DNA of 64,000 bases from an uncultured virus (IMG/VR IMGVR_UViG_3300025030_000078). Taxonomy: Duplodnaviria; Heunggongvirae; Uroviricota; Caudoviricetes. Under the pieces are notes generated by a model, which was given only the letters and a program-made list of their open reading frames with translations, had not been told where the DNA came from and made no database searches. Below are positions 38,261 through 63,839 of this stretch, piece after piece. Position numbers and translations under genes: made by a program. Location of the stretch: IMG/VR virus record IMGVR_UViG_3300025030_000078; one strand, given 5' to 3'. Each line of letters begins with the position of its first letter. Position 1 is the stretch's first letter.

Positions 38261-38271
38261 ACCATTTTACC

Positions 38272-39761: not shown

Positions 39762-40075
39762 TTTTCCTCACTTCCATTTAACTTATTACTGCTATCTTTG
39801 GTGGGTTTGAGATACGAACTAAATCTATCTCTGATTTGGGTTCTAATACGCACTAAATACCCCTGCCCGTCAGAGGTGCTTTTATTTCCTATATCTTCAA
39901 GGAACTCCAATACTGCCAACAACATCGCTTTCCTTGCTATAAAGACTTCCTTTTCCACATCAACGCTTGGAGTTGATTTGGAATATTCTGTCTCGTTGTT
40001 AGGTTTAACCTTACTGTTGTACTTTTTCATCATAATCCTCCAAAAAGAAATCAAATACTTCGGCAGGTGTTCCAT
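39758..40075 (-). CDS. Hypothetical protein
   Basis: Coupled ORF; the start may be the internal MMKK after GGAGG. Confidence 0.6.
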   Translation of the reverse strand: MEHLPKYLISFWRIMMKKYNSKVKPNNETEYSKSTPSVDVEKEVFIARKAMLLAVLEFLEDIGNKSTSDGQGYLVRIRTQIRDRFSSYLKPTKDSSNKLNGSEEK

Positions 40076-47276: not shown

Positions 47277-47852
47277 ATGGCAAAGGAAAAGAAATTAGAT
47301 CTTTCTAAATATCCTAAGAAAAACAATTTACCAAAAGAACCGCAGGAACACAAAAGAGTAGGTAGACCGACAAAGTACAAACCGGAGTTTGCACAGATGT
47401 TGATAGATTTTTTTAGTATTGACCCAACTTATGAAGAAGAGGTCACTTATACGAACAAAAAAGGGGAAACTTGGTCTAAAACAGAGAAGAAACCCAACTT
47501 TTTACCCACGTTCGAACGTTTTGCACACTCTATTGGAGTAAATGACGATACGGTAGTTACTTGGGCGAAGGCTAAAAGGTCTAAAGGAAGCGCTAAATAT
47601 CCAGAGTTTTCCGCCGCATATACGCGTGCGAAGCAGTTACAAAAGGATATTCTCGTACAAAATGCCCTTGCGGGAAGATACAATCCGGCTTACGCCATAT
47701 TTTTATCTAAGAACATTACCGACATGAGGGATAAAGTAGAAGTGCCGGTTGATGACAAAGGTAATCCAGTCCCATTCGTCTCCGGATTTAATTTTGTAAG
47801 ACCTACAGATAATAAAGACGATGGAAAGACCGACAATAACTCCGACAATTAA
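47277..47852 (+). CDS. terS: Terminase small subunit
   Basis: GRPTKYKPE, PTFERFA..IGV, YPEFSAAY and AIFLSKN motifs; precedes TerL. Confidence 0.88.
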   Translation: MAKEKKLDLSKYPKKNNLPKEPQEHKRVGRPTKYKPEFAQMLIDFFSIDPTYEEEVTYTNKKGETWSKTEKKPNFLPTFERFAHSIGVNDDTVVTWAKAKRSKGSAKYPEFSAAYTRAKQLQKDILVQNALAGRYNPAYAIFLSKNITDMRDKVEVPVDDKGNPVPFVSGFNFVRPTDNKDDGKTDNNSDN

Positions 47853-49344
47853 ACCTTCTGTTAAACAATACAAGGCGTATCAAATGCTTTGGAATGATTT
47901 CGTCTCCTTTGTTCTATACGGAGGAGCCGCCGGAGGGGGTAAGTCTTGGCTTGGTTGCGAATGGCTTCTAACTAACTGCTATAACTATCCGGGATCAAGG
48001 TGGTTTATTGGACGTGATGAGTTGAAGCGGTTAATGACAACCTCTTATATTACTTGGCAGAAGGTTTGTAGATGGCACAAGATCCCAGATTCAGATTGGA
48101 AGTTAAACGGTCAATATAACTATATTGAGTTTGTATCCGGAGCCGCTAAAGGATCCCGAATAGATCTTTTGGATTTATCCTATAAGCCTTCAGATCCTTT
48201 GTACGAACGTTTGGGATCCTTAGAGTTTACCGGAGGATGGATAGAAGAAGCGGAAGAGGTAGAGTTTTTGTGTTTTGATATTTTAAAAACCAGAGTTGGT
48301 AGGTTTATGAACACCGAGTTTGGACTGTTTCCGGCTAAAATGCTTCTTACTTGTAATCCTACAGACGGTTGGTTGTATCGAATATTTTACAAACCCTTCA
48401 AAGAAAATACACTCCCGCAGGATCATGCCTTTATTAAGGCTTTGTATAGCGATAATCCGCACACTAAAGAAGAATACGGAAAACAACTGGACAAGATTTC
48501 AGATCCTCTTGCGAGGGCAAGGCTTAGAGATGGGTTATGGGAATACGCCGGAGGAACTCTTTCGATTATTAACCTTGATGCAATTATTGATATTTTCACC
48601 AACCCTATTGCAACCGGCGATATGCAGGGAAGAATGACCGCAGACATAGCGCGTTTTGGAGGGGACAAAATGGTTGCCGGGTGTTGGAGAGGTCTTGATC
48701 TTTACCGGATTGTGGAAAAAGAAAAGCAAGGATTAAACAAAACTTGTGAGGATTTACGAAGCCTTTCAGTTAAGAATCAGATCCCGTACTCTTCCATAGT
48801 TGTAGACGAAGATGGTGTTGGTGGGGGTGTTGTGGATCATATGGAAGGGATTCACGGCTTCATGGGTGGGAGATCCCCGATTCTAAAACCGGATGAAGAT
48901 GTTGATAATATCGAAAAAAGATATCAGAACTTGCCCTCTACTTATTTGAAAAGACAGAATTACAAGAATCTTAGGTCACAATGTTATTTTCTAGCCGGAG
49001 AGTTGATAAACAACAGGCAAATGTCTATAAGCGCCGAAGACTTAACAGAGGTACAGAAACAAACTATTATCGAGGAGTTGCAACAGGTAAAGCGCGAGGA
49101 TACTTCGGCTTCCGCCCCACTTCAGATAGTGCCAAAAGAGAGGATGAAGGAAGCTCTTGGTCATTCCCCGGACTTTGCAGATATGATTATGATGCGAATG
49201 TATTTCGAACTTTTGAAAGAATCTCCTCCGGAGGGCGTGTATAATGAACCGGACGAAGAGGTTTTGCGAGAACTTGGTATTGAAAACAAATTCGGTGGTA
49301 CTGAAGGTTATGGTATAGAGAGTTTTGGATTGAAAGCAAATTAA
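47821..49344 (+). CDS. terL: Terminase large subunit
   Basis: YGGAAGGGKS, WIEEAEE, LTCNP, DNP, DIARFGGD and SPDFAD motifs. Confidence 0.95.
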   Translation: MERPTITPTIKPSVKQYKAYQMLWNDFVSFVLYGGAAGGGKSWLGCEWLLTNCYNYPGSRWFIGRDELKRLMTTSYITWQKVCRWHKIPDSDWKLNGQYNYIEFVSGAAKGSRIDLLDLSYKPSDPLYERLGSLEFTGGWIEEAEEVEFLCFDILKTRVGRFMNTEFGLFPAKMLLTCNPTDGWLYRIFYKPFKENTLPQDHAFIKALYSDNPHTKEEYGKQLDKISDPLARARLRDGLWEYAGGTLSIINLDAIIDIFTNPIATGDMQGRMTADIARFGGDKMVAGCWRGLDLYRIVEKEKQGLNKTCEDLRSLSVKNQIPYSSIVVDEDGVGGGVVDHMEGIHGFMGGRSPILKPDEDVDNIEKRYQNLPSTYLKRQNYKNLRSQCYFLAGELINNRQMSISAEDLTEVQKQTIIEELQQVKREDTSASAPLQIVPKERMKEALGHSPDFADMIMMRMYFELLKESPPEGVYNEPDEEVLRELGIENKFGGTEGYGIESFGLKAN

Positions 49345-49363: not shown

Positions 49364-51139
49364 ATGGATGAACAAACAACCACAGTAGAAATAACAGATG
49401 CGGATGTTTTAGTCTTACAGCAAGAAGAAAAAAGTGCGTTAGAGTACAGAGAAAGAAAACACGATGACTGGACGGAGAATTACACTTTATACAGAGATAA
49501 AGTTATTACGAATCGCTTAACACAAAGACAGACTGTAAATGTTCCTCTAATGAAATATGTTTTAAATACGCTTCTAAAAGAGATGATGGATGCTCCGCAA
49601 CTCTATTTTAGTAATCTTAGTAACGATCAGCAAAAAGAAATCTACTATAACGAATATTGGAAAGAAACCTTCAAAATAAACAAACTGGTCATCAAAGACC
49701 ATATAGATAAAAAACAAAATGCTTTGTTTGGTAGGGCTTTTAAAAAACTTAACATAGAAAACGGCAAGGTAAAGATTAGTCTTGTAGATCCTCAATGTAT
49801 GTTGGTTCACAGATACGTCGATCCTTCCGATATTGATTCCTCTCCGGCGTTAATTGAAACCGATATCTTTGTGACTTTGGACGATATCTTGGAAAATGAA
49901 GAATACTTGGAAGAAGGTAAAAATCAAGTAAAGATGTATTTCTCCGAGGAAGCCGGAAGATTAGAGTCCGAAGAGAATTTTGACAAGGCTTCGGAGAAGA
50001 CGGATAGATTAAAGAGTATTGGAGATGAAACCGTAGAAGATCCTTTGCTTGGAGAAACCTATGTGGAACTTCACGAAGCATACAGGTTTGAATGGAACGA
50101 TAAAAAGGATCAAAGGGTCATAATGAGATACGTTCTTGCTGTAACGAAATCAGGAACCTTCAAACTTCATAAAGCACTTCTATCAGATGTTATAGGTAAA
50201 ACTTCAGATAATTTTTGGGATACTCACTTTCCTTACACTTCTTGGGCTTCAGATCCTGAAGCTACAGATTTTTGGAGCGATGGTGTTGCAGATATTATTA
50301 GAGCCATTAACAAAATTCTCAATGTTTGGTTTAGTCAGTTGGTAGAAAACAGAACTTTGCAGAACTTTGGAATGAAATACTACGATTCTACAGATAAGAA
50401 GTTTGTACCACAGACATTCGCTCCGCAACCGTTTGCACATCTTCCAGTACCCGGAGATCCGAATAAGATCATCAAAGACGTTATTACAGGTAATTTATCC
50501 GGAACACTAGAAGAAATGACGTTCTTGATAACCCTTGCGGAAAAGGCTACCGCCGCAACTTCCGCTAATTCCGGGGCTATTGAGCCGAAGAAAGTAACTT
50601 TAGGGGAAGTGGAATATGCTTTAGCGAACGCACAAAAAAGAATAATGATTCAACAGGTGTTTTATACAGAGGATTGGAAAGATCTTGGTACTAAATATTC
50701 CAAATTCCTTGAAGCCGCCGGGGATCAGTTAGACGATTTAACAGTTTATAAAAAAGGAAGAATGGGAAAGAAGACATATAAAAAACTTATCAAACTTGGA
50801 GATTGGAGCGACGACGAAGGCTACGCTTGTGAGGTCAAGACCATTTCGGATCAACAGGATCAGGACATAGAAGAGCTTCAGAAATTGGAGATTTTAAAGA
50901 ATGAGATGCCCGATAATGTTCCTTTGGTTTCTATTCGAAGGCGTAAGATGATGGAGTTCTCCGGTCTATCTCCGGATGATATTAGTCAGGTGGAGGAGTT
51001 CGAAAGACAAAGGACTGCAACTCCGCTTGCGCCCGTTGAAGAAGTACCTTCTGAAGTTGCGGTAAATGCCGGCAATACCGGAGCCGGAAACGCTACTCCG
51101 GGAATCCCGGAAGTTCCGGACATTGCCCCTAAAGTTTGA
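49364..51139 (+). CDS. Portal protein
   Basis: 591 aa, after TerL; HFPY..W..DP...FWSDG motif. Confidence 0.85.
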   Translation: MDEQTTTVEITDADVLVLQQEEKSALEYRERKHDDWTENYTLYRDKVITNRLTQRQTVNVPLMKYVLNTLLKEMMDAPQLYFSNLSNDQQKEIYYNEYWKETFKINKLVIKDHIDKKQNALFGRAFKKLNIENGKVKISLVDPQCMLVHRYVDPSDIDSSPALIETDIFVTLDDILENEEYLEEGKNQVKMYFSEEAGRLESEENFDKASEKTDRLKSIGDETVEDPLLGETYVELHEAYRFEWNDKKDQRVIMRYVLAVTKSGTFKLHKALLSDVIGKTSDNFWDTHFPYTSWASDPEATDFWSDGVADIIRAINKILNVWFSQLVENRTLQNFGMKYYDSTDKKFVPQTFAPQPFAHLPVPGDPNKIIKDVITGNLSGTLEEMTFLITLAEKATAATSANSGAIEPKKVTLGEVEYALANAQKRIMIQQVFYTEDWKDLGTKYSKFLEAAGDQLDDLTVYKKGRMGKKTYKKLIKLGDWSDDEGYACEVKTISDQQDQDIEELQKLEILKNEMPDNVPLVSIRRRKMMEFSGLSPDDISQVEEFERQRTATPLAPVEEVPSEVAVNAGNTGAGNATPGIPEVPDIAPKV

Positions 51140-53357: not shown

Positions 53358-54455
53358 ATGAACACTTATCCTACAAAGCTAGTCGAAGCCTTCGCCTTAC
53401 AGGCACTTGAAGTCTTCTATATGATGTCCGTATCCGAAGGGATTACGAACAACGATTACGAAGGTTTGATTGAAAACAAATCTTCTAAAGTAAATATTTT
53501 AACCTTTGGTGCTATTTCAACGCACAATTACACAGGCGCCGATATGTCGGCGGATGATCTAACAGAGAGCAATGCTCAACTTGTTACTGATCAGGCTAAA
53601 TATGTGTACTTTACTGTTAAGACTTGGGACAAGTTCCGATCTTACATTAAAGATCCCGAAAATCCTGTTGCTAAACAGGTTGCTTCCGAAATTAAGAAAG
53701 TTATCGACGTCTATGTACTTGGTTTCTATGGGGATGCCGCGTCAGGAAACTGGCTTGGTACTTCATACACAACCGGTACTGTTACAGTTGATGTAACAAC
53801 TGGTTTAGTTACCGGATCCGGTACAACCTTCGCTTCTTCAATGGTTGGAAAACCATTTAAAGCTTTGGGACATACTGATTGGTATAGAATCAAGACCTTT
53901 ACTAACACGACCTCTATGGTTATTGAAGATGATAGCGATGACCTAACAAGTGCATATACCGGAGGTGCTATCGCCGGAGGTGCTACATACGAGATTCAAG
54001 GTAATACTGCAAAACAAGTTACCAAGTCCACAATCTTTGCAGAGTTTATCGAAATGCAGACTGTTCTAACAAACCAAGAAGTTCCAGAGGAAGATAGATG
54101 GGCGGTTGTTCCTGCTAAGTTAGCCGCTTTGATTCGTCAAGCTCCGGAATATGTAGGTGAAGCTGCAAGTGAAGGCGGACGAGAAGCTGTAATGAATGGC
54201 GCTCTTCCTAAGAGATTCGCAGGATTTACAGTTTACGAAGTCTCCGATGCTCGTATAAGTGGAGATTCCACTAATGGGTATCACGTTATGGCAGGACACA
54301 AATCCGCTATAACCTTCGCAATGGGCTTGACCGAAAATGGAGTAGAAGATGCTATCGGTAACTTCGGAAAGAGAGTTAAACAACTCTATGTGTACGGAGC
54401 TAAAGTAGCAGACGAGAGACGCAAGGCATTGGTACACGCTCTTTGGAAGCTCTAA
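53358..54455 (+). CDS. Major capsid protein (P22-coat-like) with an inserted beta-rich domain
   Basis: TNNDYEG, DQAKY, VPEEDRWAVV, AGF.VYE, GHKSAITFA and YVYGAKV motifs. Confidence 0.88.
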   Translation: MNTYPTKLVEAFALQALEVFYMMSVSEGITNNDYEGLIENKSSKVNILTFGAISTHNYTGADMSADDLTESNAQLVTDQAKYVYFTVKTWDKFRSYIKDPENPVAKQVASEIKKVIDVYVLGFYGDAASGNWLGTSYTTGTVTVDVTTGLVTGSGTTFASSMVGKPFKALGHTDWYRIKTFTNTTSMVIEDDSDDLTSAYTGGAIAGGATYEIQGNTAKQVTKSTIFAEFIEMQTVLTNQEVPEEDRWAVVPAKLAALIRQAPEYVGEAASEGGREAVMNGALPKRFAGFTVYEVSDARISGDSTNGYHVMAGHKSAITFAMGLTENGVEDAIGNFGKRVKQLYVYGAKVADERRKALVHALWKL

Positions 54456-54519: not shown

Positions 54520-55446
54520 ATGGGTGCATTTAAACTAAAAACACAATTACCTAGAACAACGCAAGATGAAATTGATAGAATCCAAGCTATTGCTACTGGA
54601 TTAAGAAACACCACAGAAACAAATTTCCTTACAGCTTTGCGCGACTACCTCTATAATGAGGTTATATTAGAAGATAGTGCGGACAGAATCGTTATTGCCG
54701 CTGGAATAACCGTACCTACGGGAGATTCGGGCTTCAAAAAGGGTGCTGTCTTTATTAAGAAAGATGCTTCGGATGATGGTAGATACTACAATTCCGGAAA
54801 TGAAATTGTTTCTGTTTGGGGAGCAACTGGTAGTCCGTCTCCAAGTGCATCATCGTCACCAAGCGCTTCCGCGTCGGTCTCGGTATCTCCAAGCGACTCT
54901 CCTTCAGCTTCAGCATCGCTGTCGCCATCAGCTTCAGAAAGTCGCTCTTCTTCAGCCTCGCCATCACCAAGTGCTTCAGAGAGTCGATCTTCTTCGGCTT
55001 CAGCATCGCCTTCCGCTTCGGTGTCACCAAGCGTTTCTCCTTCAGTATCGAAATCACCATCGCCAAGTGCTTCTGTATCACCAAGCGCCTCGAATTCGCC
55101 ATCACCAAGTCCTTCAGCTTCGAACAGTCCGTCTCCTTCATTATCGGTAAGTCCTTCCGCTTCGGTGTCACCAAGTGCTTCCGGAAGTCCGTCAGCTTCG
55201 GCATCGTTATCACCAAGCCCTTCAGCTTCGGTAAGTCTTTCGGTGTCGCCAAGTTCTTCGGAAAGCGCTTCCGCATCTCCAAGCGCATCGGTGTCACCTT
55301 CAGCTTCAGTATCTCCGAGCGGATCAGAATCACCTTCACCTTCACCAAGCGCTTCGTTATCGCCGAGCGCTTCTGCTTCATCTTCAGTTAGCGTCAGCGC
55401 GTCACCTTCGGTATCGCCAAGCGCTTCTGCTTCTCCAAGTGTATAA
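54520..55446 (+). CDS. Putative capsid decoration protein with a mucin-like Ser/Pro tail of about 200 aa
   Basis: Globular N-terminal ~100 aa followed by SPSxSx repeats; directly after the capsid gene. Confidence 0.85.
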
Positions 55447-55506
55447 TAGGTCATTCGTTTGACTAAAAAGGTGTATTTAATGTTCAGATAGTGCTATTAT
55501 CATTCC

Positions 55507-56400
55507 ATGATAAAAAATAAAGTTTCTGTCGTAATACCCTCCCGAAACGAACAATTTCTCTCAAACACAATCAAAGATCTTTTAAAAAATGCTAGAGGTG
55601 ATATAGAAATTATCGCTGTACTCGATGGTTATTGGGAAAAACCGGATAAAATAGTCGAGGACAATCGTGTTATTTATTTACACAAAGGGGAGTCCGAAGG
55701 CATGAGAGCCGGGATAAATTCCGCAGTAGCCGTTTCTACCGGAGAATTCATTATTAAAGTAGACGGGCATTGTATGTTTGGAGAAGGTTTCGATGAGATT
55801 TTAAAAAAAGATTGCGCGGAAGATTGGGTCGTTGTTCCTACTAGAAAAAGACTTGATGCGGAGAACTGGTGTATTCAAGATGTTGGAAAACCGGATATAG
55901 ACTATATGTTTTTATCCTTTCCTAATGATCCGGCGGACTTTGGCGGAGCCGGTCTAAACGGTAAAGTTTGGGAAGAAAAAAACAGGGATCCGGAATTAAA
56001 GAACAAGAAGATTGATGATTTAATGTCCTCGCAAGGTTCAATGTGGTTTATGCGTAGAAGTTATTTTGATTTCTTGGAACTAATGGACGAAGAAAACTAC
56101 GGTACTTTTTGGAATGAATTTCAAGAGATTGGTTTAAAAGCGTGGTTATCAGGCGGAAGAGTTGTTGTTAATAAAAACACTTGGTACGCACATCTTCATA
56201 AAGGTAAGAAATACGGAAGAGGATACTTCTTAGCGGAAAAGGAACTGATAAAAGGTAGGAATTATACTAACAAATGGATAAACGAAAAGGTTTGGCACAA
56301 ACAGAAATATAACTTAGCTTGGCTAGTAGAAAAATTTTATCCGGTTCCAACATGGTCGGAAGATAGGAGTTTATGGGTAGGCAATTACAAAATAGATTAG
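55507..56400 (+). CDS. GT-A glycosyltransferase, GT2/GT27-like
   Basis: VSVVIPSRNE, KVDGHC and EIGLKAWLSGG...YAHLHK motifs. Confidence 0.9.
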   Translation: MIKNKVSVVIPSRNEQFLSNTIKDLLKNARGDIEIIAVLDGYWEKPDKIVEDNRVIYLHKGESEGMRAGINSAVAVSTGEFIIKVDGHCMFGEGFDEILKKDCAEDWVVVPTRKRLDAENWCIQDVGKPDIDYMFLSFPNDPADFGGAGLNGKVWEEKNRDPELKNKKIDDLMSSQGSMWFMRRSYFDFLELMDEENYGTFWNEFQEIGLKAWLSGGRVVVNKNTWYAHLHKGKKYGRGYFLAEKELIKGRNYTNKWINEKVWHKQKYNLAWLVEKFYPVPTWSEDRSLWVGNYKID

Positions 56401-56942
56401 AGCTTGCGCAGTATTTTGCAGAATTGGGTTTTAAAAAGGGCGTTGAAGTTGGTGTAGCAGAAGGAATATACTCTTTAGTTTTATGCCAAAATATTCCCGG
56501 ATTGGAACTTCATTGCGTAGATCCGTGGGATACTTATAAAGATAATCAACGCGGTGGCGGTAAGGAAAAGCAATATCATAATTTCGAATTAGCAAAAGAA
56601 AAGTTGACTCCATATAATGTTACATTCCATAGGAAAATGAGTATAGACGCTGTTCGAGATTTTGAGGATGGTTCTTTAGATTTTGTTTATATAGATGGGA
56701 ATCACAACTTTGATTATGTAATAGAGGATCTTGTAGCTTGGGGAAGGAAAGTAAAAATGGGTGGAATTATATCCGGACACGATTACTATCACTTCACAGA
56801 GTCCGGAGTTGTGGAAGCCGTGGACGCCTATCTAAAGGGTAATAACATAAGAGATTGGGTTCTAACCCATGAAAGAGAAGGTAGTTTTTATTTCTTCAAG
56901 CAGAAGAATCATTCAATAAAGGTAAAGGGATGGAGACAATAG
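56373..56942 (+). CDS. SAM methyltransferase (Methyltransf_24-like)
   Basis: GVEVGV..G, VDPW, DFVYIDGNH and GGIISGHDY motifs. Confidence 0.9.
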   Translation: MGRQLQNRLELAQYFAELGFKKGVEVGVAEGIYSLVLCQNIPGLELHCVDPWDTYKDNQRGGGKEKQYHNFELAKEKLTPYNVTFHRKMSIDAVRDFEDGSLDFVYIDGNHNFDYVIEDLVAWGRKVKMGGIISGHDYYHFTESGVVEAVDAYLKGNNIRDWVLTHEREGSFYFFKQKNHSIKVKGWRQ

Positions 56943-57562
56943 AACTTATTAAAAACATATTCAAGTTGGATCTTGGGGGAAAATCCCCCACAGAGATAGA
57001 CGATGTTGGAAGGTTAGATCTTGCCGCCTTATTTAGAATTTCCGGATTTAAAGTCGGGGCGGAGATTGGCGTAGAGCAAGGAGAATACTCTAAAGCTCTT
57101 TGCAAATTGAATCCCAACTTACATTTATTCTGCGTTGACGCTTGGACTGCTCATAAGGAATATAAAGACCATATTACTCAACAAAAGTTTGATGATTTTC
57201 TTTCTATAGCTAAAAAGAAACTCAAAGGGTTTAATGTCACTTTTATCAAGAAGTTTAGTATGGATGTAGTTAAAGACTTTGAGGACGGTTCTTTAGATTT
57301 TGTTTATATAGACGCAAATCATGGATATAAATACGTTTTGCAGGATATAACCGAATGGAGTAAAAAGGTCAGAAAGGGCGGTATTGTAAGTGGACATGAC
57401 TATATAAAAAGAACCTCTCCTAGAACGCATCAAGTAGTACGGGCAGTTGACGAATATGTAAAAGATAACAATATAAAAACTTGGTTTTTGTTCGGAAGCA
57501 AAAATAAACAGGAAGGTAAAGTTCGGGACGCCGCTAGATCTTGGGCGTGGGTAAAAGAGTAA
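56930..57562 (+). CDS. SAM methyltransferase (Methyltransf_24-like), paralog
   Basis: GAEIGVEQG, DFVYIDANH and GGIVSGHDY motifs. Confidence 0.9.
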   Translation: METIELIKNIFKLDLGGKSPTEIDDVGRLDLAALFRISGFKVGAEIGVEQGEYSKALCKLNPNLHLFCVDAWTAHKEYKDHITQQKFDDFLSIAKKKLKGFNVTFIKKFSMDVVKDFEDGSLDFVYIDANHGYKYVLQDITEWSKKVRKGGIVSGHDYIKRTSPRTHQVVRAVDEYVKDNNIKTWFLFGSKNKQEGKVRDAARSWAWVKE

Positions 57563-57628
57563 CATGGAAGAAACGGTACTATGGTCTGTTATGGTAATAA
57601 TTATTTATTTCTTTTATAAGATTTTAAA

Positions 57629-58615
57629 ATGAAATACGATTTAAGCATTTTAATACCGGCAAGGAATGAAGAATTTTTAGCAAGAACTGTACAAAATATT
57701 CTACAGAATATTAGAGGTAATACCGAAGTTATTGTTTCTTTAGATGGTTATTGGGGCGCAGTACCCGTGAATCCTAGAGTTACAGTTATTCATTTTCCGG
57801 AGAGTATTGGGCAAAGAGCCGGAACTAATCAGTTGGCAAGACTTTCTAAAGCTAAGTATGTTATGAAGGTGGACGCCCATTGTTGTTTCGACGAAGGTTT
57901 CGACGTTAAGTTGATGTCCGAAATGCGCGATGATTATACGATGATTCCTCTTATGAAGCATCTTCATGTTTTCGATTGGAAGTGTAAAAAGTGTGGGAGC
58001 CAATGGGATCAAGGAAGAACACCACAACAATGTATGATTCGTGTAGGAAGAGATGGCAAGGGAGCCGAGCCTAATCCTGCTTGTGACAACAAGACAGATT
58101 TTGAACGCGTGTTTTTTTGGGAAGCTAGAAAGTCTCCGGTTAATATAACTTATCGTTTTGATAGGGAACTTATTTTTCAATATTGGAAAGAAATATCTTT
58201 AAGACCGGAACTACAAGTAAATGACAAACTGGTGGAAACAATGTCTATTCAAGGATCCTGCTTCATGTTAACTCGTGAAAAATATTGGGAACTTGATATT
58301 TGTGACGAAGGACATGGAAGTTGGGGACAACAAGGAACAGAAGTCGCGTGTAAAACTTGGTTGTCTGGTGGTAAACTGATAGTGAATAAGGATACTTGGT
58401 ACGCTCATTTATTTAGAACGCAAGGTGGGGATTTTGGCTTTCCCTACCCTAATCCGGGTATACCAAAAGCTAGACAATATTCGCAGGGATTGTGGTTTAG
58501 CGATTTTGAAACATTGAAGAGAAGATGGAAACCGGCTATACACGATCTAAAGTGGTTGATAAATAAGTTTGCGCCTGTACCTGATTGGCAAGATTGGGAG
58601 GAGGTGCAAAAATAA
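57629..58615 (+). CDS. GT-A glycosyltransferase, GT2/GT27-like, with a Cys-rich insert
   Basis: LSILIPARNE, KVDAHC and WGQQGTEVACKTWLSGG...AHLFR motifs; CKKC insert. Confidence 0.9.
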   Translation: MKYDLSILIPARNEEFLARTVQNILQNIRGNTEVIVSLDGYWGAVPVNPRVTVIHFPESIGQRAGTNQLARLSKAKYVMKVDAHCCFDEGFDVKLMSEMRDDYTMIPLMKHLHVFDWKCKKCGSQWDQGRTPQQCMIRVGRDGKGAEPNPACDNKTDFERVFFWEARKSPVNITYRFDRELIFQYWKEISLRPELQVNDKLVETMSIQGSCFMLTREKYWELDICDEGHGSWGQQGTEVACKTWLSGGKLIVNKDTWYAHLFRTQGGDFGFPYPNPGIPKARQYSQGLWFSDFETLKRRWKPAIHDLKWLINKFAPVPDWQDWEEVQK

Positions 58616-58624
58616 AAAGGTAAA

Positions 58625-59338
58625 ATGAAAAAAGAAATCATCTACTATACTTGTAACACTCATAGGGAAGATATAGAAATGGCTTGTAGAAGGCAGTTAT
58701 TAAAATCCGGTTTGCCTATACTTTCAGTATCCCGTGAAAAAGAAATAGATTTTGGCGATACGCGTATTATCTTACAAGGAGCTAGAAGTCCTGAAATGAT
58801 GCACAGACAGATTCTTGCGGGATTAGAAGCAAGCGACGCGGATTATGTTTTTTTATGCGAAAGCGATGTTTTATACCATCCCTCTCATTTTGAGTTTACT
58901 TCTCCGCAGGATACAGCTTATTACTACAACATAAATGTATGGAAATATTGGTTTGAAGACGGTCTTTGTGTTTGGGTCGATGATATGAAACAAGTATCCG
59001 GAATATGCGCTAATAAGAACCTGTTGTTACAACATTATAGAAAAAGAGTTGAAAGAATAGATAGAGAAGGAAAGTTTTCTATTGCTTGGGGTTACGAACC
59101 CGGATCGAGAAAACCTCCTTTAGGGTTTGATGAATTTCCTAGATTCGAATATAAATCGACTGTTCCTAATGTTTGTATAAGGCACGGAGAAACTTTAACT
59201 AAAAGTAAAAGATCTCCGGAAGAATTCCGCAATCCTAAATATGCCGAAGGATTCAAGACCGCCAGAGAAATTCCCGGATGGGGAAATATTAAGAGTATAT
59301 TTGATAGGGAGGCAATTGATGGTTCAACGACAATCTAG
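58625..59338 (+). CDS. Divergent GT-A glycosyltransferase
   Basis: QILAGLE...YVFLCESDVLY (ExD motif) and IRH. Confidence 0.65.
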   Translation: MKKEIIYYTCNTHREDIEMACRRQLLKSGLPILSVSREKEIDFGDTRIILQGARSPEMMHRQILAGLEASDADYVFLCESDVLYHPSHFEFTSPQDTAYYYNINVWKYWFEDGLCVWVDDMKQVSGICANKNLLLQHYRKRVERIDREGKFSIAWGYEPGSRKPPLGFDEFPRFEYKSTVPNVCIRHGETLTKSKRSPEEFRNPKYAEGFKTAREIPGWGNIKSIFDREAIDGSTTI

Positions 59339-59415
59339 GAATAATAACACAAATGTTTTTAATGTTTCTCATTGGAGAAAATTCGAAAATTTCCTAAGAA
59401 AGGTGGATTAATAAT

Positions 59416-61116
59416 ATGCCTACACTAGTTGCTAGTTATGATGGCGATGGTGCAAGTAATACAACGTGGGCTTTAGCGGGTGGTTACAACACTATCGCTG
59501 TTCAATCCTTCAAACCATCGGCATCAGGAAAACTCACATCGGCTAAGTTCTATTTGAAAAATGCCACAGCCGTTACAGGAACTTGCTATTTTGTCTTATA
59601 TGCACATTCTGGAACGTACGGGACAAGTAGTGTTCCTACAGGTAGCGTTCTAGCAACATCCGCCGGTCTTGATGTCTCGACACTAAACTCTACCTTTGCA
59701 CTAAAAGAGCTGACTTTCTCCGGTGCTAATCAGTACGATTTAGTTGCCAATACCGCTTATTGTATAGGTGTAACTTTTACAGGGGGTGATGGAGACCATT
59801 ATATACAGGTAGGGATTGATACCACCAATCCTTCTCACGAAGGTAATAGGGCGTCCTATATTTCATCGTGGACTGCCTATGCAAATGACCAAGCATTTTA
59901 TGTATACATAGAGGCATCATCACCGAGTGCTAGTGTTTCTCCCTCATCATCAGCTAGTCCGTCGTCTTCAATTTCCCCGTCTTCTTCGGAATCCCCATCG
60001 GTTTCGCCCTCGGCTTCTATCAGCCCGTCTTCGTCGGAAAGTCCTTCTGTCTCACCGTCAGCATCAGTAAGCCCATCGTCGTCAGTATCGCCATCTTTAA
60101 GTCCATCGGCTTCCGCTTCTCCGAGTTCTAGCGTTTCGCCTTCGGTTTCACCAAGTGCGTCTGTGTCACCTTCGGCTTCAGAGAGTCCGTCGGTATCACC
60201 TTCGGCGTCAATTAGTCCATCCGCTTCAGAGTCGCCTTCGGTATCCCCAAGTTCGTCAGTATCGCCGTCGGTCTCTCCTTCAGCTTCTATAAGTCCGTCG
60301 GCTTCGATCTCTCCATCAAGTTCGGAGTCTCCTTCGGTTTCTCCGTCAGCATCAGTATCGCCATCATCATCGGAGTCGCCAAGCATTTCCCCATCGTCTT
60401 CGGCATCTCCAAGTCCGGGAAGTCCTTCGGCGTCTATTTCTCCATCGGCATCGGTTTCGCCAAGCGCTTCAGAATCTCCATCGGTTAGTCCTTCGGCTTC
60501 CGTAAGTCCTTCAGCTAGTGAGAGTTTGTCACAATCTCCGTCGGCATCTATAAGCCCTTCGGCTTCAGAGTCTCCGTCGGTTTCGCCATCCGCTTCGGTA
60601 AGTCCGTCGAGTTCCGGGTCTCCTTCAATTTCCCCATCCGCTTCAGTTTCTCCGAGCGCTTCGGTAAGCCCGTCGTTTTCAGAATCTCCGTCGGTATCCC
60701 CGTCGGCATCCATGTCGCCTTCTTCGTCAGCATCGCTCTCAACGAGTCCTAGCGCGTCGATTTCTCCTTCAGCTTCGGAAAGTCCTTCAATTTCACCTTC
60801 GGCTTCTGTTTCACCTTCAGCATCCGGATCACCATCGGTTTCACCAAGTAGTTCTCTTTCAGCGTCACCGTCACCTTCGTCGAGCGAAAGTCCTTCATTA
60901 TCTCCGTCATCCTCGCCAAGCCCGTCGTCCTCGGTTTCCCCTTCTATCAGCCCATCATCTTCGGCTAGCCCTTCTCCCACGGAATGGGAATACAAATACA
61001 CAACAAGAAATACTGTTTATAGTGGTTATAAGTATTCAACGCGCGGAACTTCATATAGTGACAAATACTCAAATAGAAGCTCTTCTTATCAGGATAAATA
61101 TCGTTTTAGATCTTGA
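59416..61116 (+). CDS. Virion protein: beta-sandwich head, mucin-like Ser/Pro stalk of about 350 aa, Tyr-rich repeats
   Basis: QSF...S.KFYLK...G domain; [12 protein letters not shown] repeats; Y.DKYS.R repeats. Confidence 0.85.
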   Translation: MPTLVASYDGDGASNTTWALAGGYNTIAVQSFKPSASGKLTSAKFYLKNATAVTGTCYFVLYAHSGTYGTSSVPTGSVLATSAGLDVSTLNSTFALKELTFSGANQYDLVANTAYCIGVTFTGGDGDHYIQVGIDTTNPSHEGNRASYISSWTAYANDQAFYVYIEASSPSASVSPSSSASPSSSISPSSSESPSVSPSASISPSSSESPSVSPSASVSPSSSVSPSLSPSASASPSSSVSPSVSPSASVSPSASESPSVSPSASISPSASESPSVSPSSSVSPSVSPSASISPSASISPSSSESPSVSPSASVSPSSSESPSISPSSSASPSPGSPSASISPSASVSPSASESPSVSPSASVSPSASESLSQSPSASISPSASESPSVSPSASVSPSSSGSPSISPSASVSPSASVSPSFSESPSVSPSASMSPSSSASLSTSPSASISPSASESPSISPSASVSPSASGSPSVSPSSSLSASPSPSSSESPSLSPSSSPSPSSSVSPSISPSSSASPSPTEWEYKYTTRNTVYSGYKYSTRGTSYSDKYSNRSSSYQDKYRFRS

Positions 61117-61134: not shown

Positions 61135-62595
61135 ATGAAAAGTTTTCTTATTCAAAGTTTTACCGGACTTTCTGATTTTGAGGACAAAGGCGCGAGAGGA
61201 GCTTTTAAATTCGGAAGTGGTTTGGATGTTAGACGAAACAGAGATTCTTTAAAGGCGGGGCAAGCATTAGCAAACGATTTAGCGTTGGGCGGTATTATGA
61301 ACTCTCCGGTTGTCGATGTAGTGAACTCTTCCGATGGAAATTCTTATTGGGGACTTGAAAACGGAAGAATTTTACAAAGAACTAGCGCAGGAGTTTGGAG
61401 TTTAAAATATACAGATGTTGAAGGAGATTTAAGAGGTATCGGAGAATGGGGAAACGACAACGGAGAAACAGGAATTTATTGGGCGACTCCTACAAAAATA
61501 CATAGAAAACCAATTCCCGGAAATGCAAATTGGACAGATGTTGATACAAGTGCCGGAAACCCTGCACAAACATATCCTAAAACTAATCTTACGAACACAC
61601 CTAACCATTTAATGAAAGTTATAAATGGCGGGTTTTATATAAACAACGGAGACGCTGTAGCGCTTATTGGTTATGATGAGTCTTACACCAATTTAGCTCT
61701 CCAACTTTTGCCGGATAATCTAGCCGAAGTATTATTGGACGACGGGATTTATGCAATTATAGGAGCCAGTCTTGGATCAGATAAGGAAGAATGTTGGCTT
61801 TATTCTTGGGATGGAATTTCCCTTAATTATAACGATAGAACTCCTCTCCCGTTTAAAGATATTAACGCAATAATAAAAGGAGAAGTAATTGTTGTTCAAT
61901 TCGGAAGCGATGGGCAATTATTCTTTGTAGGGGATTCTGGAAGGATCCCAATTACAGCTTTCCCCGGAGGAGGTCAAGTAGAACCGGCAGGAGTAGATGT
62001 TGATGGTGGACTTATTTTATTTGGAGTTTATGGTAATGACGTTTCTCGACAATCCGGAGTTTATGCTTATGGCAGAAATAAAAAGAACGCGGATTTTGTT
62101 CTGAATTTAGAATATCCTTTAGTTTGTGATTCTATAGATGCTGTAAGAAAAGTAGGATCTGATAAACTTATTGCTTATAAATCCGGATCACAGTATGGGG
62201 TCAAGAAGGTTGATACAGCAAACAAAATATCACAAGCTATTTACGAAACTATAGATTTAAAACTTCCTACAGAATACGGGAAGTTGCCTACCATATCTAG
62301 TATTGTTGTGGATATGGCTCCGCTACCGGCAGGGTGTTCTATAGAAATATGGCGAAGACTTGATAAAAAAGAAACTGAAGCCGGTACTGATTACGCCGGA
62401 GTTGCTACCGGTTTAAATGACGGTTGGCATCAATGTAGTTTGCAGGACGGATCCGGTTCTTTTACCGATGATGGGAAAACGGAAGCTATATTTAATTCGG
62501 AGGATAGTGGAAAAATCCTAGAGATCCGTGCTGTTTTAAATTGTTCTGGTAATAACAGCCCTGAAATCTTTAAGATCCAACCCTATTTTAGTTGA
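61135..62595 (+). CDS. Putative tail nozzle / stabilization protein
   Basis: SFTGLS N-terminus; beta-propeller-like composition; YETID motif. Confidence 0.55.
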   Translation: MKSFLIQSFTGLSDFEDKGARGAFKFGSGLDVRRNRDSLKAGQALANDLALGGIMNSPVVDVVNSSDGNSYWGLENGRILQRTSAGVWSLKYTDVEGDLRGIGEWGNDNGETGIYWATPTKIHRKPIPGNANWTDVDTSAGNPAQTYPKTNLTNTPNHLMKVINGGFYINNGDAVALIGYDESYTNLALQLLPDNLAEVLLDDGIYAIIGASLGSDKEECWLYSWDGISLNYNDRTPLPFKDINAIIKGEVIVVQFGSDGQLFFVGDSGRIPITAFPGGGQVEPAGVDVDGGLILFGVYGNDVSRQSGVYAYGRNKKNADFVLNLEYPLVCDSIDAVRKVGSDKLIAYKSGSQYGVKKVDTANKISQAIYETIDLKLPTEYGKLPTISSIVVDMAPLPAGCSIEIWRRLDKKETEAGTDYAGVATGLNDGWHQCSLQDGSGSFTDDGKTEAIFNSEDSGKILEIRAVLNCSGNNSPEIFKIQPYFS

Positions 62596-63086
62596 TGGAT
62601 CAAGACAAGGTTTATTATCCGGAAATTATAGAAACATACGCTTTGCCCGAAACTGTAGTGGAGGAAGAAACGTCCTCTACTAATTATGTTGGTAAAACCA
62701 ATCTTGTTCCAACTACACAAGTAGACAAGAAATTTCCTCCTAGAAACTTCGCAAGAGAAACTATAAGTGAGACGTTAAACACTCGAACAAAGAAGATTTT
62801 GGGGGAATTTACTTTCGGTCAAGTAGGTGCTATCGCAATCGGGGTATATGAAAACGGGGTGTCCGGAGATATTCGTATCACGCCTAACGGCATTACAGCT
62901 AGAAATATAAATGGGGAAACTACTTTTTCTATAGACGGAACAACAGGAGATGCTGTCTTTAAGGGAACAATAACCGCAGGTGCTTTAGTCACGGGAAGTG
63001 TCGTAGTACAAGGACAAGGGGCATTTGTAGTTAATGATGGAACTTATAACGTAATCCGCATGGGTTACTTTGCAGGAGGTTTGTAA
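62595..63086 (+). CDS. Tail protein
   Basis: TTFSIDGTTGDAVFKGTITAG motif. Confidence 0.65.
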   Translation: MDQDKVYYPEIIETYALPETVVEEETSSTNYVGKTNLVPTTQVDKKFPPRNFARETISETLNTRTKKILGEFTFGQVGAIAIGVYENGVSGDIRITPNGITARNINGETTFSIDGTTGDAVFKGTITAGALVTGSVVVQGQGAFVVNDGTYNVIRMGYFAGGL

Positions 63087-63418
63087 TGCCAGCCGAATAC
63101 GGTTTAAAAATAAGACTAGACAATGTTGCTGATGATGTGGAGGATTGTACGCCAAAACAAACAGCCTTCAATTCTAAATACCCTTGTGCGAAGATTCTTC
63201 AAGATGGAAAGGTTAGTGCTTCTACCGGATTTATTGTGGAAGTAAGCTTAGATTCCGATGTATCTTTTCCTTTCCAGTTACTTTGTTTTCTATATGACGC
63301 TAGTACACAAGAATATGAACCTGCTCAAAATGTTTCTTTTGATAGTACAAAAATTTATCTACCGGCAACGGCAAAAATAGAAGGAAGCTTTTTCTATTAC
63401 TTTGTTTGTTACGCATAA
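63086..63418 (+). CDS. Tail protein
   Basis: YGLKI...FNSKYP motif, shared with the next ORF. Confidence 0.65.
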   Translation: MPAEYGLKIRLDNVADDVEDCTPKQTAFNSKYPCAKILQDGKVSASTGFIVEVSLDSDVSFPFQLLCFLYDASTQEYEPAQNVSFDSTKIYLPATAKIEGSFFYYFVCYA

Positions 63419-63419
63419 T

Positions 63420-63839
63420 ATGGGAAATTACGGCGCTAAGATAGCAAAGAAAAAACATAATGTAGAAGATGGGGATCGTTACCAGATCTTCAATTCTAAA
63501 TATCCGGCGCTAAAATTAAAAGTATCCGGACAGGGTACGGGATCGCAGGTGGCAGGTAATGGAGGATTTACCATAACAATATCGCATAATTTGGGTTATG
63601 TTCCCCTATGTTTTGTAGATGGTCAGTACTTTAATCTTCCGGCGGAAGCCGTCGTTACCAAGTTCTCTAAGTGGAACAGATTTATATATCAAGGACTACA
63701 GGTTGGGGATTCTTATTACTACTACGCTGATACCACAAATTTATATATAGTGGCTTCTCTTTCCTATTTAACAGATGTTTACACTTTCGATCTTGATTAT
63801 ATGTATCATATTTATTATGACGAGGATACTTTAGCATGA
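63420..63839 (+). CDS. Tail protein
   Basis: YGAKI...FNSKYP and ITISHNLGYVP motifs. Confidence 0.7.
   Translation: MGNYGAKIAKKKHNVEDGDRYQIFNSKYPALKLKVSGQGTGSQVAGNGGFTITISHNLGYVPLCFVDGQYFNLPAEAVVTKFSKWNRFIYQGLQVGDSYYYYADTTNLYIVASLSYLTDVYTFDLDYMYHIYYDEDTLA

Follow-up and report, generated by a model that had tools for sequence, protein, structure and literature searches.

The window, that is the whole stretch of 64 kb of DNA that was analysed, is a composite sequence, and sugar genes elsewhere in it may therefore originate from another genome. Between the capsid gene and fibre-like genes it encodes a compact group of enzymes in the order GT-A, two Methyltransf_24 methyltransferases, GT-B and a third GT-A-fold protein (GT-A and GT-B are names of genes; folds are always marked as such). 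This cassette is flanked on both sides by genes for serine-repeat proteins (54520-55446 and 59416-61116). The features of the region are as follows.

47821-49344: terminase (phrog_2, E 5e-23), upstream of the capsid gene
49364-51139: portal candidate (SU10_portal, 28.5 bits, under the cut-off of 30), upstream of the capsid gene
53358..54455, + strand: major capsid protein (PHROG phrog_267 'major head protein', E 1e-17), which sets the cassette in the virion module
54520..55446, + strand: repeat protein 1, conserved N-terminal domain of about 104 aa and (Ser-x)n tail
55507..56400, + strand: GT-A, GT27-like GT-A-fold glycosyltransferase of 297 aa (PF00535, E 5e-14)
56373..56942, + strand: MT1, SAM-dependent methyltransferase (PF13578 Methyltransf_24, E 7e-18)
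56930..57562, + strand: MT2, second Methyltransf_24 methyltransferase (PF13578, E 3.6e-17)
57629..58615, + strand: GT-B, GT27-like glycosyltransferase of 328 aa (Glycos_transf_2, E 5e-10)
58625..59338, + strand: third GT-A-fold protein ('A2' domain), recognized by its model fold and by fusion to GT-B homologs
59416..61116, + strand: repeat protein 2, 168-aa N-terminal domain, (Ser-x)n and a C-terminal tail rich in Tyr, Lys and Arg

The last 28 nt of GT-A are shared with MT1. A first-pass annotation, made from the sequence, had reported two glycosyltransferase ORFs with DGHC and DAHC motifs at 55507-56400 and 57629-58615. Both were found at exactly these positions on the + strand, and the string quoted from the second one, GSCFMLTREKYWELDICDEGHGSWGQQGTEVACKTWLSGG...AHLFR, is present there. 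While both glycosyltransferases are real, a description as two enzymes is too narrow, as the cassette also includes the third GT-A-fold protein and the two methyltransferases.

GT-A and GT-B are paralogs with 31% identity over 326 columns (E 3e-52). The motifs of GT-A are DGHC (aa 86-89, nt 55762-55773), WNEFQE (202-207) and AHLHK (228-232), those of GT-B are DAHC (aa 82-85, nt 57872-57883), WGQQGTE (232-238) and AHLFR (259-263). In both families the D-x-D motif of GT2 is replaced by an invariant D-x-H. All 45 aligned relatives of GT-B keep its residues D82, H84 and H260, and all 18 sequences of the GT-A-type alignment keep D86, H88 and H229 of GT-A, which argues at the sequence level that these motifs are beyond chance. 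The Cys following D-x-H is common and variable; DAHS, DAHV and DAHA also occur in the GT-A-type and GT-B alignments. When GalNAc-T1 is aligned to a profile of the GT-B family (A1), the D-x-H and the C-terminal His of GT-B fall on its DAHC and GHVFR stretches. In a single-sequence PDB alignment, GT-B has Gln where the W-G-G-E-N-x-E stretch of the animal enzymes has its first Glu, a residue that is important in those enzymes. According to an excerpt of PMC4202792, Mn is bound in GalNAc-T1 by Asp209, His211 and His344, and D-x-H in place of D-x-D is described as specific to GT27 and GT60 in an excerpt of PMC7185993.

GT-B additionally carries an insert with four cysteines (C119, C122, C135 and C152, nt 57983-58084), which is absent from GT-A. 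By its sequence it is likely a zinc ribbon, and weak zinc-ribbon Pfam matches could be identified in several members of the GT-B family. Neither enzyme has a membrane anchor, the maximal 19-residue Kyte-Doolittle mean being 0.99 for GT-A and 0.63 for GT-B, and with maxima below 1.2 all cassette enzymes are soluble by hydropathy. The catalytic domain begins at residue 4-6 in both proteins, and the ORFs stop 60-70 residues past the catalytic His, with no additional domain shown by Pfam. They were rightly called lectin-less in the first-pass annotation: Pfam found a ricin-type lectin domain neither in GT-A or GT-B nor in any of the 36 longer family members scanned.

In Pfam both enzymes are labelled as plain Glycos_transf_2. 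This family (PF00535), which also covers GT27 enzymes, is matched by 45 of 45 family members over the N-terminal half only (residues 6-104 of GT-B), and five of the 45 touch Glyco_transf_7C weakly (best E 0.034). Homology to the GT27 domain spans both halves, namely the nucleotide-binding N-terminal half and the half with the Gal/GalNAc-T motif. Searched against the PDB, profile A1 (45 sequences, GT-B type) aligned with GalNAc-T1 (1xhb) along positions 4-278 (E 7.7e-19). ppGalNAc-Ts took the top 15 places among distinct PDB sequences, and 5hea came next with 2.6e-9, in the N-terminal part only. Profile A3, built from 18 GT-A-type sequences, gave the same ranking, with ppGalNAc-Ts over positions 3-250 (E 5.2e-21). 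As a single sequence GT-B matched 16 PDB sequences, all of them ppGalNAc-Ts, and GT-A matched only generic GT2 N-termini, so that GT27 is reached from GT-A only with the family profile.

The fold agrees. With the model of GT-B (pLDDT 94.3) the Foldseek ranks 1-50 are all GalNAc-T chains, and VIA-align gave Z 25.8 for GalNAc-T1 (273 residues aligned, 3.0 A) and Z 24.4 for Toxoplasma GalNAc-T3. After GT27, polysaccharide and teichoic-acid enzymes follow as structural neighbours, e.g. K4CP, TarS and TarP. The first-pass annotation had taken both ORFs for GT27-like and had named polysaccharide GT2s as the structural match that would speak against this; the GalNAc-Ts came first by both family profiles (E 8e-19 and 5e-21) and by fold, the best chain outside GT27 reaching Z 17.4. 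GT-A and GT-B are thus kin to GT27 in the motifs of their sequences and in the modelled fold. As a family label GT60, whose enzymes have no lectin domain, may be equally good and could be the nearer family. PF11397, which we take to be the Pfam family covering GT60, was not among the matches listed (25 of 39 Pfam families) for the 45 members, nor was a GT60 chain among the solved-structure matches. The D-x-H motif is common to the phage enzymes and the protist polypeptide alpha-N-acetylglucosaminyltransferases of GT60, a likeness by description and not by sequence, taken from an excerpt of PMC7185993.

The gene of repeat protein 1 follows directly after the capsid gene. Its (Ser-x)n tail (aa 105-307, nt 54832-55440) contains 107 Ser in 203 residues, 102 of them at alternate positions, and its N-terminal domain has no Pfam, PHROG or PDB match. 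The repeat of protein 2 (aa 169-520, nt 59920-60975) contains 193 Ser in 352 residues, and the serine repeats noted earlier beside the enzymes are therefore real. Judged by gene order, repeat protein 1 may have a head-decoration role and repeat protein 2 may be a fibre-like virion protein; family searches gave no assignment for either. Orthologs of repeat protein 1 were found in five related loci (L003, L008, L009, L013 and L027), in which the alternate Ser is kept and x varies, and proteins like repeat protein 2 come after the GT genes in L003 and L009. Among repeat-protein orthologs at 52-69% identity the Ser columns are invariant and x is variable. The repeats use all six Ser codons and tandem repeats at the DNA level are weak, which together with the invariant Ser columns suggests that they are selected at the protein level.

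What is conserved in the presumed acceptors is the Ser in every other position. Pro, which the first-pass annotation had thought to supply the acceptor context, occupies only 8-54% of the x positions in 26 repeat ORFs (median 34%). Thr is nearly absent, Ser making up at least 97% of the S/T positions. Animal ppGalNAc-Ts prefer Thr.

The A2 protein could not be assigned to any Pfam, PHROG or NCBIfam family. It contains the motifs YYTCN (aa 7-11) and ESD (aa 79-81), with E79 and D81 invariant in 35 sequences, and is 40% identical to the C-terminal half of a 564-aa GT-B homolog (P0004). In 70 out of 150 representative clusters, the A2 domain and a GT27-like domain are joined in one protein. Its model (pLDDT 94.1) has a GT-A or nucleotide-sugar transferase fold with Z 12-13; no one family stands out, and the best Foldseek match is TarP. 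To judge from the model, it is probably another glycosyltransferase.

Fusions also connect the methyltransferases to this group. Methyltransf_24 is fused to a GT27-like domain in 10 of the 36 long family members scanned, and 9 of the 120 best homologs of GT-A carry a fusion of this kind. P0204, one of the fused relatives, shows a match to the RMNT_CmcI rhamnosyl O-methyltransferase family with E 1e-40, and MT1 may accordingly be described as a putative sugar O-methyltransferase. In MT2 the match behind the PHROG label 'DNA methyltransferase' (phrog_2675) is a partial one and covers positions 314-464 of the 599 in the profile. The fusions in relatives suggest that the glycosyltransferases, the A2 protein and the methyltransferases form one functional unit.

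We looked at the linkage of enzymes and repeats in both directions. ORFs within 8 kb were counted as repeat neighbours of a GT locus if they had 40 or more residues of (S/T-x)n. Such an ORF is present in 21 of 27 loci of the family and, once the contig of the window itself and two duplicates are left out, in 18 of 24 distinct loci; the remaining 6 of 24 have no repeats in the available DNA. Among control loci matching only the generic GT2 N-terminus, which are cellular and not phage loci, the number is 0 of 17. In the opposite direction a degenerate coding pattern for SPSASVSPS yielded 78 viral loci, which were merged to 69 distinct groups. A repeat ORF is found in 56 of these groups and none in 13; a full GT27-like domain accompanies 35 of the 56, an A2 domain 40 and an MT1-like gene 29, and none of the three occurs in any of the 13 repeat-free groups, whereby the linkage counts include loci of shared ancestry and are not independent events. 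The GT27-like domain is missing from 21 of the 56 repeat groups in the available DNA, many of which are short contigs. Counted before merging, there are 39 GT-positive repeat loci; in all 39 the repeat and the nearest GT27-like ORF share a strand, and a median of 185 bp separates them. This two-way linkage backs the idea that (Ser-x)n is the acceptor.

Taken from sequences, models and gene neighbourhood, the most plausible reading, in which we have good though not full confidence, is that the block 54520-61116 is one late-gene cassette making mucin-like glycoproteins for the phage particle. The core would be GT-A and GT-B, two soluble paralogs of a GT27/GT60-like clade, each with the GT-A fold and a Gal/GalNAc-T-type motif, and with Asp-x-His and a C-terminal His as the metal site. 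Acting in the host cytoplasm, presumably by a retaining mechanism, the enzymes would use nucleotide sugars, probably those of UDP, as donors and glycosylate the alternating Ser hydroxyls of both flanking proteins. In a possible division of labour, as the first-pass annotation had suggested, one of the two enzymes would start the chain and the other extend it; the attached sugars would be extended to short chains and then O-methylated, the A2 protein and the two SAM methyltransferases completing the enzyme set. As a result, a head-associated and a fibre-like protein would each carry a dense brush of glycans, and by its genes the phage probably sugar-coats its own particle.

The same enzymes could instead build or alter a non-protein glycan, for example a host cell-wall or teichoic-acid-type polymer, a capsule or a lipid-linked sugar, in serotype conversion or superinfection exclusion, with the repeats travelling along as unmodified flexible stalks. 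Pfam and source annotations, which say GT2 or 'glycosyltransferase involved in cell wall biosynthesis', would fit, as would K4CP, TarS and TarP as neighbours below GT27, TarP as the best match of A2, and the cluster in CPR genomes, which adjoins nucleotide-sugar genes typical of polysaccharide loci. We nevertheless regard this as unlikely, as about 8 Z units lie between GT27 and every polysaccharide enzyme, the enzymes have no membrane segments and the genes lie within the virion module. Moreover, the tight, same-strand and two-way repeat linkage would not persist through hitch-hiking across relatives that reach down to 28-50% identity.

We consider it quite improbable that the sugars go to other proteins of the phage, the capsid protein for instance, and not to the Ser repeats. 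Mycobacteriophage glycans are placed on the C-termini of capsid and tail-tube subunits in an excerpt of PMC12619734, and in a few loci (L018, L016 and L021) paralogous 'AHKNFAYST...' proteins lie beside the GT genes, replacing long repeats or alongside short ones. However, the repeat genes are the nearest neighbours of the enzymes, the enzymes do not occur in the 13 distinct repeat-free pattern loci, and the capsid protein (53358-54455) has no Ser/Thr-rich tail, the two repeat ORFs being the only ones listed in the block. Hypermodification of phage DNA bases by the glycosyltransferases and methyltransferases would agree with the PHROG label, given to both methyltransferases, and with phage glycosyltransferases often glucosylating DNA, as excerpts of PMC12619734 and 10.1101/2023.12.21.572611 have it. 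It is very hard to reconcile with the partial nature of the PHROG match, with the fusion of the same methyltransferase domain to GT domains, once together with the rhamnosyl O-methyltransferase family, with a fold nearest to peptide-directed enzymes, and with the position in the virion module; a Pfam scan of 46 ORFs (1-49 kb of the window) revealed no hydroxymethylase or TET-type gene.

Among known systems, the enzymes can be compared to GT27 of CAZy, the eukaryotic polypeptide N-acetylgalactosaminyltransferases (ppGalNAc-Ts). The GT-A-fold catalytic domain aligns end to end with that of GalNAc-T1 (1xhb/8v9q), GalNAc-T2 (2ffu/4d0t) and Toxoplasma GalNAc-T3 (8uhv), and both the D-x-H plus C-terminal His metal site and the motif W-G-...-E-...-W-x-x-G-G-...-H-x-F-R are in common. 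Like mucins, the presumed phage acceptor is a dense hydroxy-amino-acid repeat. In contrast to GT27, the phage enzymes have no ricin-type lectin domain, membrane anchor or stem and are thus predicted to be cytoplasmic and not Golgi proteins; they comprise about 300 aa compared to 550-650 in GT27, GT-B has the Cys4 insert, the presumed acceptors are Ser-only, and methyltransferases and another GT-A-fold domain are partners or often fused. The sequence identity is only 15-20%.

Dense cytoplasmic O-glycosylation of long Ser-x repeats by dedicated, co-encoded Gtf enzymes is known from the serine-rich repeat glycoproteins of Gram-positive bacteria (Fap1, GspB). Initiation there falls to GtfA/GtfB, a pair with the GT-B fold, and the finished proteins are exported as adhesins, whereas the candidate initiators here are GT-A-fold and GT27-like and the carriers are phage or CPR proteins. 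To our knowledge, phage particles were long taken as unglycosylated. Our literature search found no description of this cassette, and as worked examples of virion glycosylation only mycobacteriophages, with unrelated enzymes. According to excerpts of PMC11600133 and PMC12619734 on the work of Freeman et al. 2023, these phages have tandem glycosyltransferase genes beside an O-methyltransferase gene, and capsid and tail-tube proteins are glycosylated. In gene content, several glycosyltransferases with an O-methyltransferase are a likeness to Che8 and cluster O, where terminal tails of virion proteins are modified (excerpts of PMC11256854, PMC11600133 and PMC12619734). The presumed acceptors here are (Ser-x)n arrays of 200-350 residues on accessory proteins, compared to capsid and tail-tube C-termini in the excerpted mycobacteriophage work, and the cassette genes lie within the structural module. 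The enzymes are not detectably related: tblastn of GT-A, GT-B and the A2 domain gave no match in 50,697 GenBank phage records.

The cassette would extend virion glycosylation to a large uncultured family and a different enzyme clade, and would add a different acceptor design with hundreds of alternating Ser per protein. It is also a source of small, soluble, lectin-free relatives of the mucin-initiating enzymes. Expressed in E. coli, they could serve to test the minimal features making a GT-A-fold enzyme peptide-directed, and might become tools for making dense O-glycoproteins.

The GT-B family comprises 5469 word-index matches, or 946 representative clusters at 50% identity. Genes for GalE-like SDR or UDP-sugar dehydrogenase-like proteins, all under the equivalog cut-offs, lie beside relatives. 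Tentatively, and with considerable doubt, the family may be seen as a sister group, in prokaryotic viruses and CPR bacteria, to the eukaryotic GT27/GT60 mucin-type initiators, or may even have given rise to them. In that case a complete 'mucin' system, a kit of hydroxy-amino-acid repeat scaffold, D-x-H initiator, extending transferases and capping methyltransferases, would exist in phages of ultra-small bacteria and in some such bacteria, and the eukaryotic enzymes would have added lectin domain and membrane anchor later. Besides phages, the family was found in CPR/DPANN metagenome bins and in 4 of 201 sampled CPR bacterial genomes. One of the CPR occurrences is on a closed chromosome with cellular genes on both sides, which leads one to ask if a single kit for surface glycoproteins is common to cells and their phages.

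Between 47.8 and 64 kb, the plus strand of the window carries a phage late module. Two proteins with arrays of alternating serines, (Ser-x)n, enclose five genes of predicted enzymes, and these seven genes are referred to as the cassette (54520-61116). The names GT-A and GT-B are handles for the two glycosyltransferases and do not denote folds.

Genes of the late module
47821-49344, +, terminase (phrog_2, E 5e-23)
49364-51139, +, portal candidate (SU10_portal, 28.5 bits, just below the cut-off)
53358-54455, +, major capsid protein (phrog_267, E 1e-17)
54520-55446, +, repeat protein 1, 308 aa, first ORF after the capsid gene
55507-56400, +, GT-A (motif DGHC), ORF after repeat protein 1
56373-56942, +, methyltransferase MT1 (Methyltransf_24, E 7e-18), 28-nt overlap with GT-A
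56930-57562, +, methyltransferase MT2 (Methyltransf_24, E 4e-17)
57629-58615, +, GT-B (motif DAHC), ORF after MT2
58625-59338, +, third GT-A-fold protein (third domain), 237 aa, ORF after GT-B
59416-61116, +, repeat protein 2, 566 aa, ORF after the third GT-A-fold protein

Re-reading confirmed what the first-pass annotation gives for GT-A and GT-B as to ORF boundaries, the two motifs (DGHC and DAHC) and the quoted peptide. The genes downstream of repeat protein 2 are without family matches, and PHROGs at E up to 0.1 returned nothing usable for the genes at 61135-63839 and for both repeat proteins.

GT-A and GT-B, which are paralogs (31% identity, E 3e-52), had been proposed to resemble the polypeptide GalNAc-transferases (ppGalNAc-Ts) of family GT27. 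This is borne out by the family profiles of both enzymes and by the fold of GT-B, all of which rank GalNAc-transferases first. At E up to 1, the single sequence of GT-B matches 16 PDB sequences, every one a polypeptide GalNAc-transferase, with GalNAc-T7 as the best (1.3e-7); among them, the entry that carries just the label 'Glycosyl transferase' is Toxoplasma GalNAc-T3. The single sequence of GT-A gave only three PDB matches, which are generic GT2 N-terminal ones. A profile of 45 sequences around GT-B finds GalNAc-T1 over positions 4-278 (E 7.7e-19), and its first 15 distinct sequences are ppGalNAc-Ts, followed by 5hea (2.6e-9) with the N-terminal third only. The profile of 18 GT-A-type sequences also finds the ppGalNAc-Ts first (E 5.2e-21 down to 9.9e-14), next to which comes chondroitin synthase (9e-12, positions 4-84). 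When the AlphaFold model of GT-B (pLDDT 94.3, pTM 0.92) was compared with the PDB by Foldseek, ranks 1-50 were all GalNAc-T chains, with E-values from 3e-16 to 4e-13 and TM-scores of 0.58-0.70 (query). When 48,161 representative chains were scanned by a method other than Foldseek, GalNAc-T1 (Z 25.8, 273 residues, 3.0 A) and Toxoplasma GalNAc-T3 (Z 24.4) came out on top, the next being K4 chondroitin polymerase (17.4).

The D-x-H motif and a C-terminal His are invariant in both alignments (45 GT-B sequences and 18 GT-A-type sequences) and align with the Mn ligands of GalNAc-T1 (PMC4202792). D-x-H in place of D-x-D is a feature that PMC7185993 ascribes to GT27 and GT60 specifically. GT-B carries a Cys insert CKKC...C...C (Cys 119, 122, 135, 152), which is absent from GT-A and at which several relatives show weak zinc-ribbon Pfam matches. 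NCBIfam has no family for GT-B, the third GT-A-fold protein, MT1 or MT2, and for GT-A a sub-threshold PgaC N-terminal match only. By sequence profiles, motifs and the GT-B model, GT-A and GT-B are GT27-like.

Their description as lectin-less also stands, as Pfam finds no lectin domain in GT-A or GT-B nor in any of the 36 longer relatives scanned (36/36). Both differ from GT27 in having no hydrophobic anchor and in being short with only about 300 aa. The first Glu of W-G-G-E-N-x-E matters in the animal enzymes. According to the alignments GT-B, in contrast to animal GT27, has a Gln at this position, whereas GT-A retains the E-x-x-E spacing. Pfam assigns the GT-A/GT-B family to Glycos_transf_2, and Glyco_transf_7C is touched weakly in 5 of 45 members. 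GT60 enzymes are not known to carry a lectin domain. They have D-x-H and polypeptide O-glycosylation in common with GT27, as stated in PMC7185993. Therefore the careful label for GT-A and GT-B, with GT60 known here by description, is that of a putative 'GT27/GT60-like clade'.

Ser accounts for 107 of 203 residues in repeat protein 1, 102 of them at alternate positions, and for 193 of 352 residues in repeat protein 2. These two are the only ORFs of the 64-kb window with at least 20 residues of (Ser-x)n, and both flank the enzymes. All six Ser codons are in use within the arrays, and Tandem Repeats Finder reports only short arrays matching by 66-90%. Across six orthologs of repeat protein 1, at 52-69% identity, every alternate Ser column is invariant, with P, A, V, L, K, G or E at the x positions. 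Codon use, weak tandem repeats and Ser columns together argue that the arrays are maintained at the protein level and not by DNA slippage. As to the suggestion that prolines of the repeats provide the acceptor context favoured by ppGalNAc-Ts, Pro is common yet not required, as it occupies 8-54% (median 34%) of the x positions in 26 repeat ORFs. In the same ORFs, which were found via the enzyme and are therefore unbiased for repeat composition, at least 97% of the S/T positions are Ser. What the repeats keep in common is alternating Ser, almost without Thr.

Pfam, PHROG and the PDB offer no family for the non-repeat domains of either repeat protein; a PDB search with a profile built on the N-terminal domain of repeat protein 1 was negative as well, with pleckstrin (E 1.2) as the best hit. 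It is the gene order by itself that suggests a virion location of both proteins. Behind its repeats, repeat protein 2 ends in a Tyr/Lys/Arg/Ser-rich tail of about 46 residues (60976-61116; …EWEYKYTTRNTVYSGYKYSTRG…), which may be an anchoring or assembly segment.

The linkage of enzymes and repeats was followed from both sides. On the enzyme side, the flanks of 27 loci with full-length relatives (14 viral, 13 in genome bins) were examined for ORFs in which (S/T-x)n extends over 40 or more residues. Such an ORF is present at 21 of the 27 loci; leaving out L001, the contig of the window itself, as well as L005 and L007 as duplicates gives 18 of 24. Control loci with the generic N-terminal GT2 half only contain it in 0 of 17 cases, this control being imperfect as it is cellular and not phage.

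On the repeat side, a degenerate coding pattern for SPSASVSPS, which has 2 matches in the window versus 0 expected, led to at least 78 loci in the viral collection. A repeat ORF is found in 62 of these, together with a full GT27-like domain in 39, the third domain in 43 and either of them in 46; none of the 16 loci without repeat ORF listed among the at least 78 has a GT27-like or third domain. Merging of overlapping loci left 69 groups, 56 with repeats. Among the matches listed, these 56 groups comprise 35 with a GT27-like domain, 40 with the third domain, 42 with either and 29 with an MT1-like gene, and the 13 groups without repeats contain none of the three. In the 39 unmerged GT-positive repeat loci, again among the matches listed, the nearest GT27-like ORF lies at a median of 185 bp (maximum 4.6 kb) and always on the same strand as the repeat ORF (39/39), and 33 of the 39 have two or more GT27-like ORFs. 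Many of the listed repeat loci without enzyme are contigs under 10 kb. All these counts refer to related loci of common ancestry and not to independent events; the linkage is retained down to 28-50% identity and over different gene orders.

Three loci carry paralogous proteins of ~375 aa (~307 aa in L021) after their GT genes (L018:9117-12525, L016:4548-5693, L021:10087-11010), which start with 'M(A/P)DAHKNFAYSTVATAPSPA...'. L018 has no long serine repeat, and L016 and L021 have one short serine-repeat ORF each at the contig end. These proteins may be a different acceptor class.

The third GT-A-fold protein shares 40% identity with the C-terminal half of P0004, a 564-aa GT-B homolog, and according to local HMMs 70 of 150 representative clusters have the third domain fused to a GT27-like one. 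Its model (pLDDT 94.1) has a GT-A / nucleotide-sugar transferase fold, for which glycosyltransferases and cytidylyltransferases tie at Z 12-13; the best Foldseek match is TarP (E 1e-5), and an E-x-D (E79, D81) is invariant. We read it as a further, putative glycosyltransferase of a family without name. Methyltransf_24 is fused to the GT27-like domain in 10 of the 36 long relatives scanned, one of which matches the rhamnosyl O-methyltransferase family (E 1e-40), and to a GT-A-type protein in 9 of the best 120 of 3230 GT-A homologs. At E up to 0.01, neither MT1 nor MT2 itself matches any PDB sequence. Through these fusions GT-A is joined to the methyltransferases, and GT-B to the third domain, in what would be a single methylated-glycan pathway; the cassette forms one unit and extends beyond two genes. 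In three relatives (P0129, P0135, P0156) homing-endonuclease domains, GIY-YIG and NUMOD3, lie between the GT27-like and the third domain; such inserts are typical of phage genes.

In the mechanism we propose, soluble enzymes in the cytoplasm of the infected cell would add sugars to the alternating Ser of both repeat proteins, either ahead of assembly or in its course. At least three transfer steps would fall to GT-A, GT-B and the third domain, and MT1 and MT2 would cap the sugars. A head-associated and a fibre-like protein would each end up with a mucin-like brush. The cassettes of relatives are adjoined by GalE-like SDR and truncated UDP-sugar dehydrogenase-like genes, all under equivalog cut-offs, and one CPR locus has genes of UDP-HexNAc-modifying type (Polysacc_synt_2, UDP-GlcNAc 2-epimerase). 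The SDR of the window (41420-42532, minus strand) is GalE-like with 157 bits at a cut-off of 262, and because it is below the cut-off it says nothing on the donor sugar.

A search of the word-indexed collection with GT-B gave 5469 matches at E up to 0.001; GT-A has 3230 matches and the third domain 514. Clustered at 50% identity, the representatives that match GT-B number 946, and 237 of these do so at E up to 1e-30. The source names of the relatives are 'glycosyltransferase involved in cell wall biosynthesis' or 'hypothetical' and nothing else. None of the three has a tblastn match in 50,697 GenBank phage records. Among species-representative genomes, full-length relatives occur in bins labelled Woesebacteria, Levyibacteriota, Andersenbacteria, Parcubacteria, Patescibacteria, Nanoarchaeota and a few others. 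On a closed Woesebacteria chromosome (L022:10442-14237) three (Ser-x)n ORFs in a row adjoin a GT27-like gene; the first of them has Gly_rich_2 as its N-terminal domain (E 4e-12). The flanks encode TatC, a Mg-chelatase/ComM-like protein and other cellular proteins, and no phage hallmark is found within 8 kb. The cassette may thus serve cellular proteins in CPR bacteria too. Of 201 sampled genomes of that phylum, 4 have a match at E up to 1e-20, and this patchy spread fits mobile or phage-borne carriage.

The closest analogue of the acceptor are the serine-rich repeat adhesins of Gram-positive bacteria, whose initiating enzymes are other than GT27-like. In mycobacteriophages, phage-encoded glycosyltransferases and an O-methyltransferase modify virion proteins (Freeman et al. 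2023, as referred to in PMC11256854, PMC11600133 and PMC12619734). The cassette likewise combines glycosyltransferases with methyltransferases, and a role on virion proteins is proposed from its genes. In contrast to the mycobacteriophage enzymes, GT-A and GT-B would belong to the GT27/GT60-like clade without a relative among the GenBank phages, and the acceptor design is very different. In the open-access literature searched, there is no description of GT27-like phage enzymes or serine-repeat virion proteins.

The make-up of the window bears on which genes go with the cassette. Positions 30001-39192 are 100% identical to the virus record G001 (41.6 kb), the nearest record, and 39176-40450 match its first 1.3 kb with 96%. 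Positions 1-202 are repeated at 40143-40344 (94% identity), and a terminase and a capsid gene are present in either part (5306-6793 and 15467-16414; 47821-49344 and 53358-54455). These matches, the repeated end and the doubled genes indicate two phage-like units or a tangled assembly: either two related phages were joined, or a ~40.1-kb unit wraps around and is followed by another genome. Only genes from about 40.1 kb on can be assumed to travel with the cassette. G001 contains neither GT-B nor the SDR gene, and because its coverage stops at ~40 kb of the window it provides no context for the cassette. The ORFs of the cassette recur as a set on L001, a 13.6-kb viral contig with 100% identity over the match to the GT-B protein.

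A second set of sugar genes is found on the minus strand at 31442-35576, to which the GalE-like SDR is added.

Genes of the second sugar-gene set
31442-31966, -, methyltransferase
32490-32969, -, methyltransferase
32950-33753, -, GT4-like ORF, weak
34096-34797, -, TOD1/MUCI70 glycosyltransferase-like protein (E 2e-19)
34995-35576, -, methyltransferase
within 31442-35576, -, DUF2334 protein

A GT-B-fold glycosyltransferase (16586-17674; Glycos_transf_1 / Glyco_trans_1_4, E 2e-7) directly follows the capsid gene at 15467-16414, which is that of the first unit. No serine-repeat ORF is found around 15467-17674, and this pair may represent a second, different virion-glycosylation arrangement.
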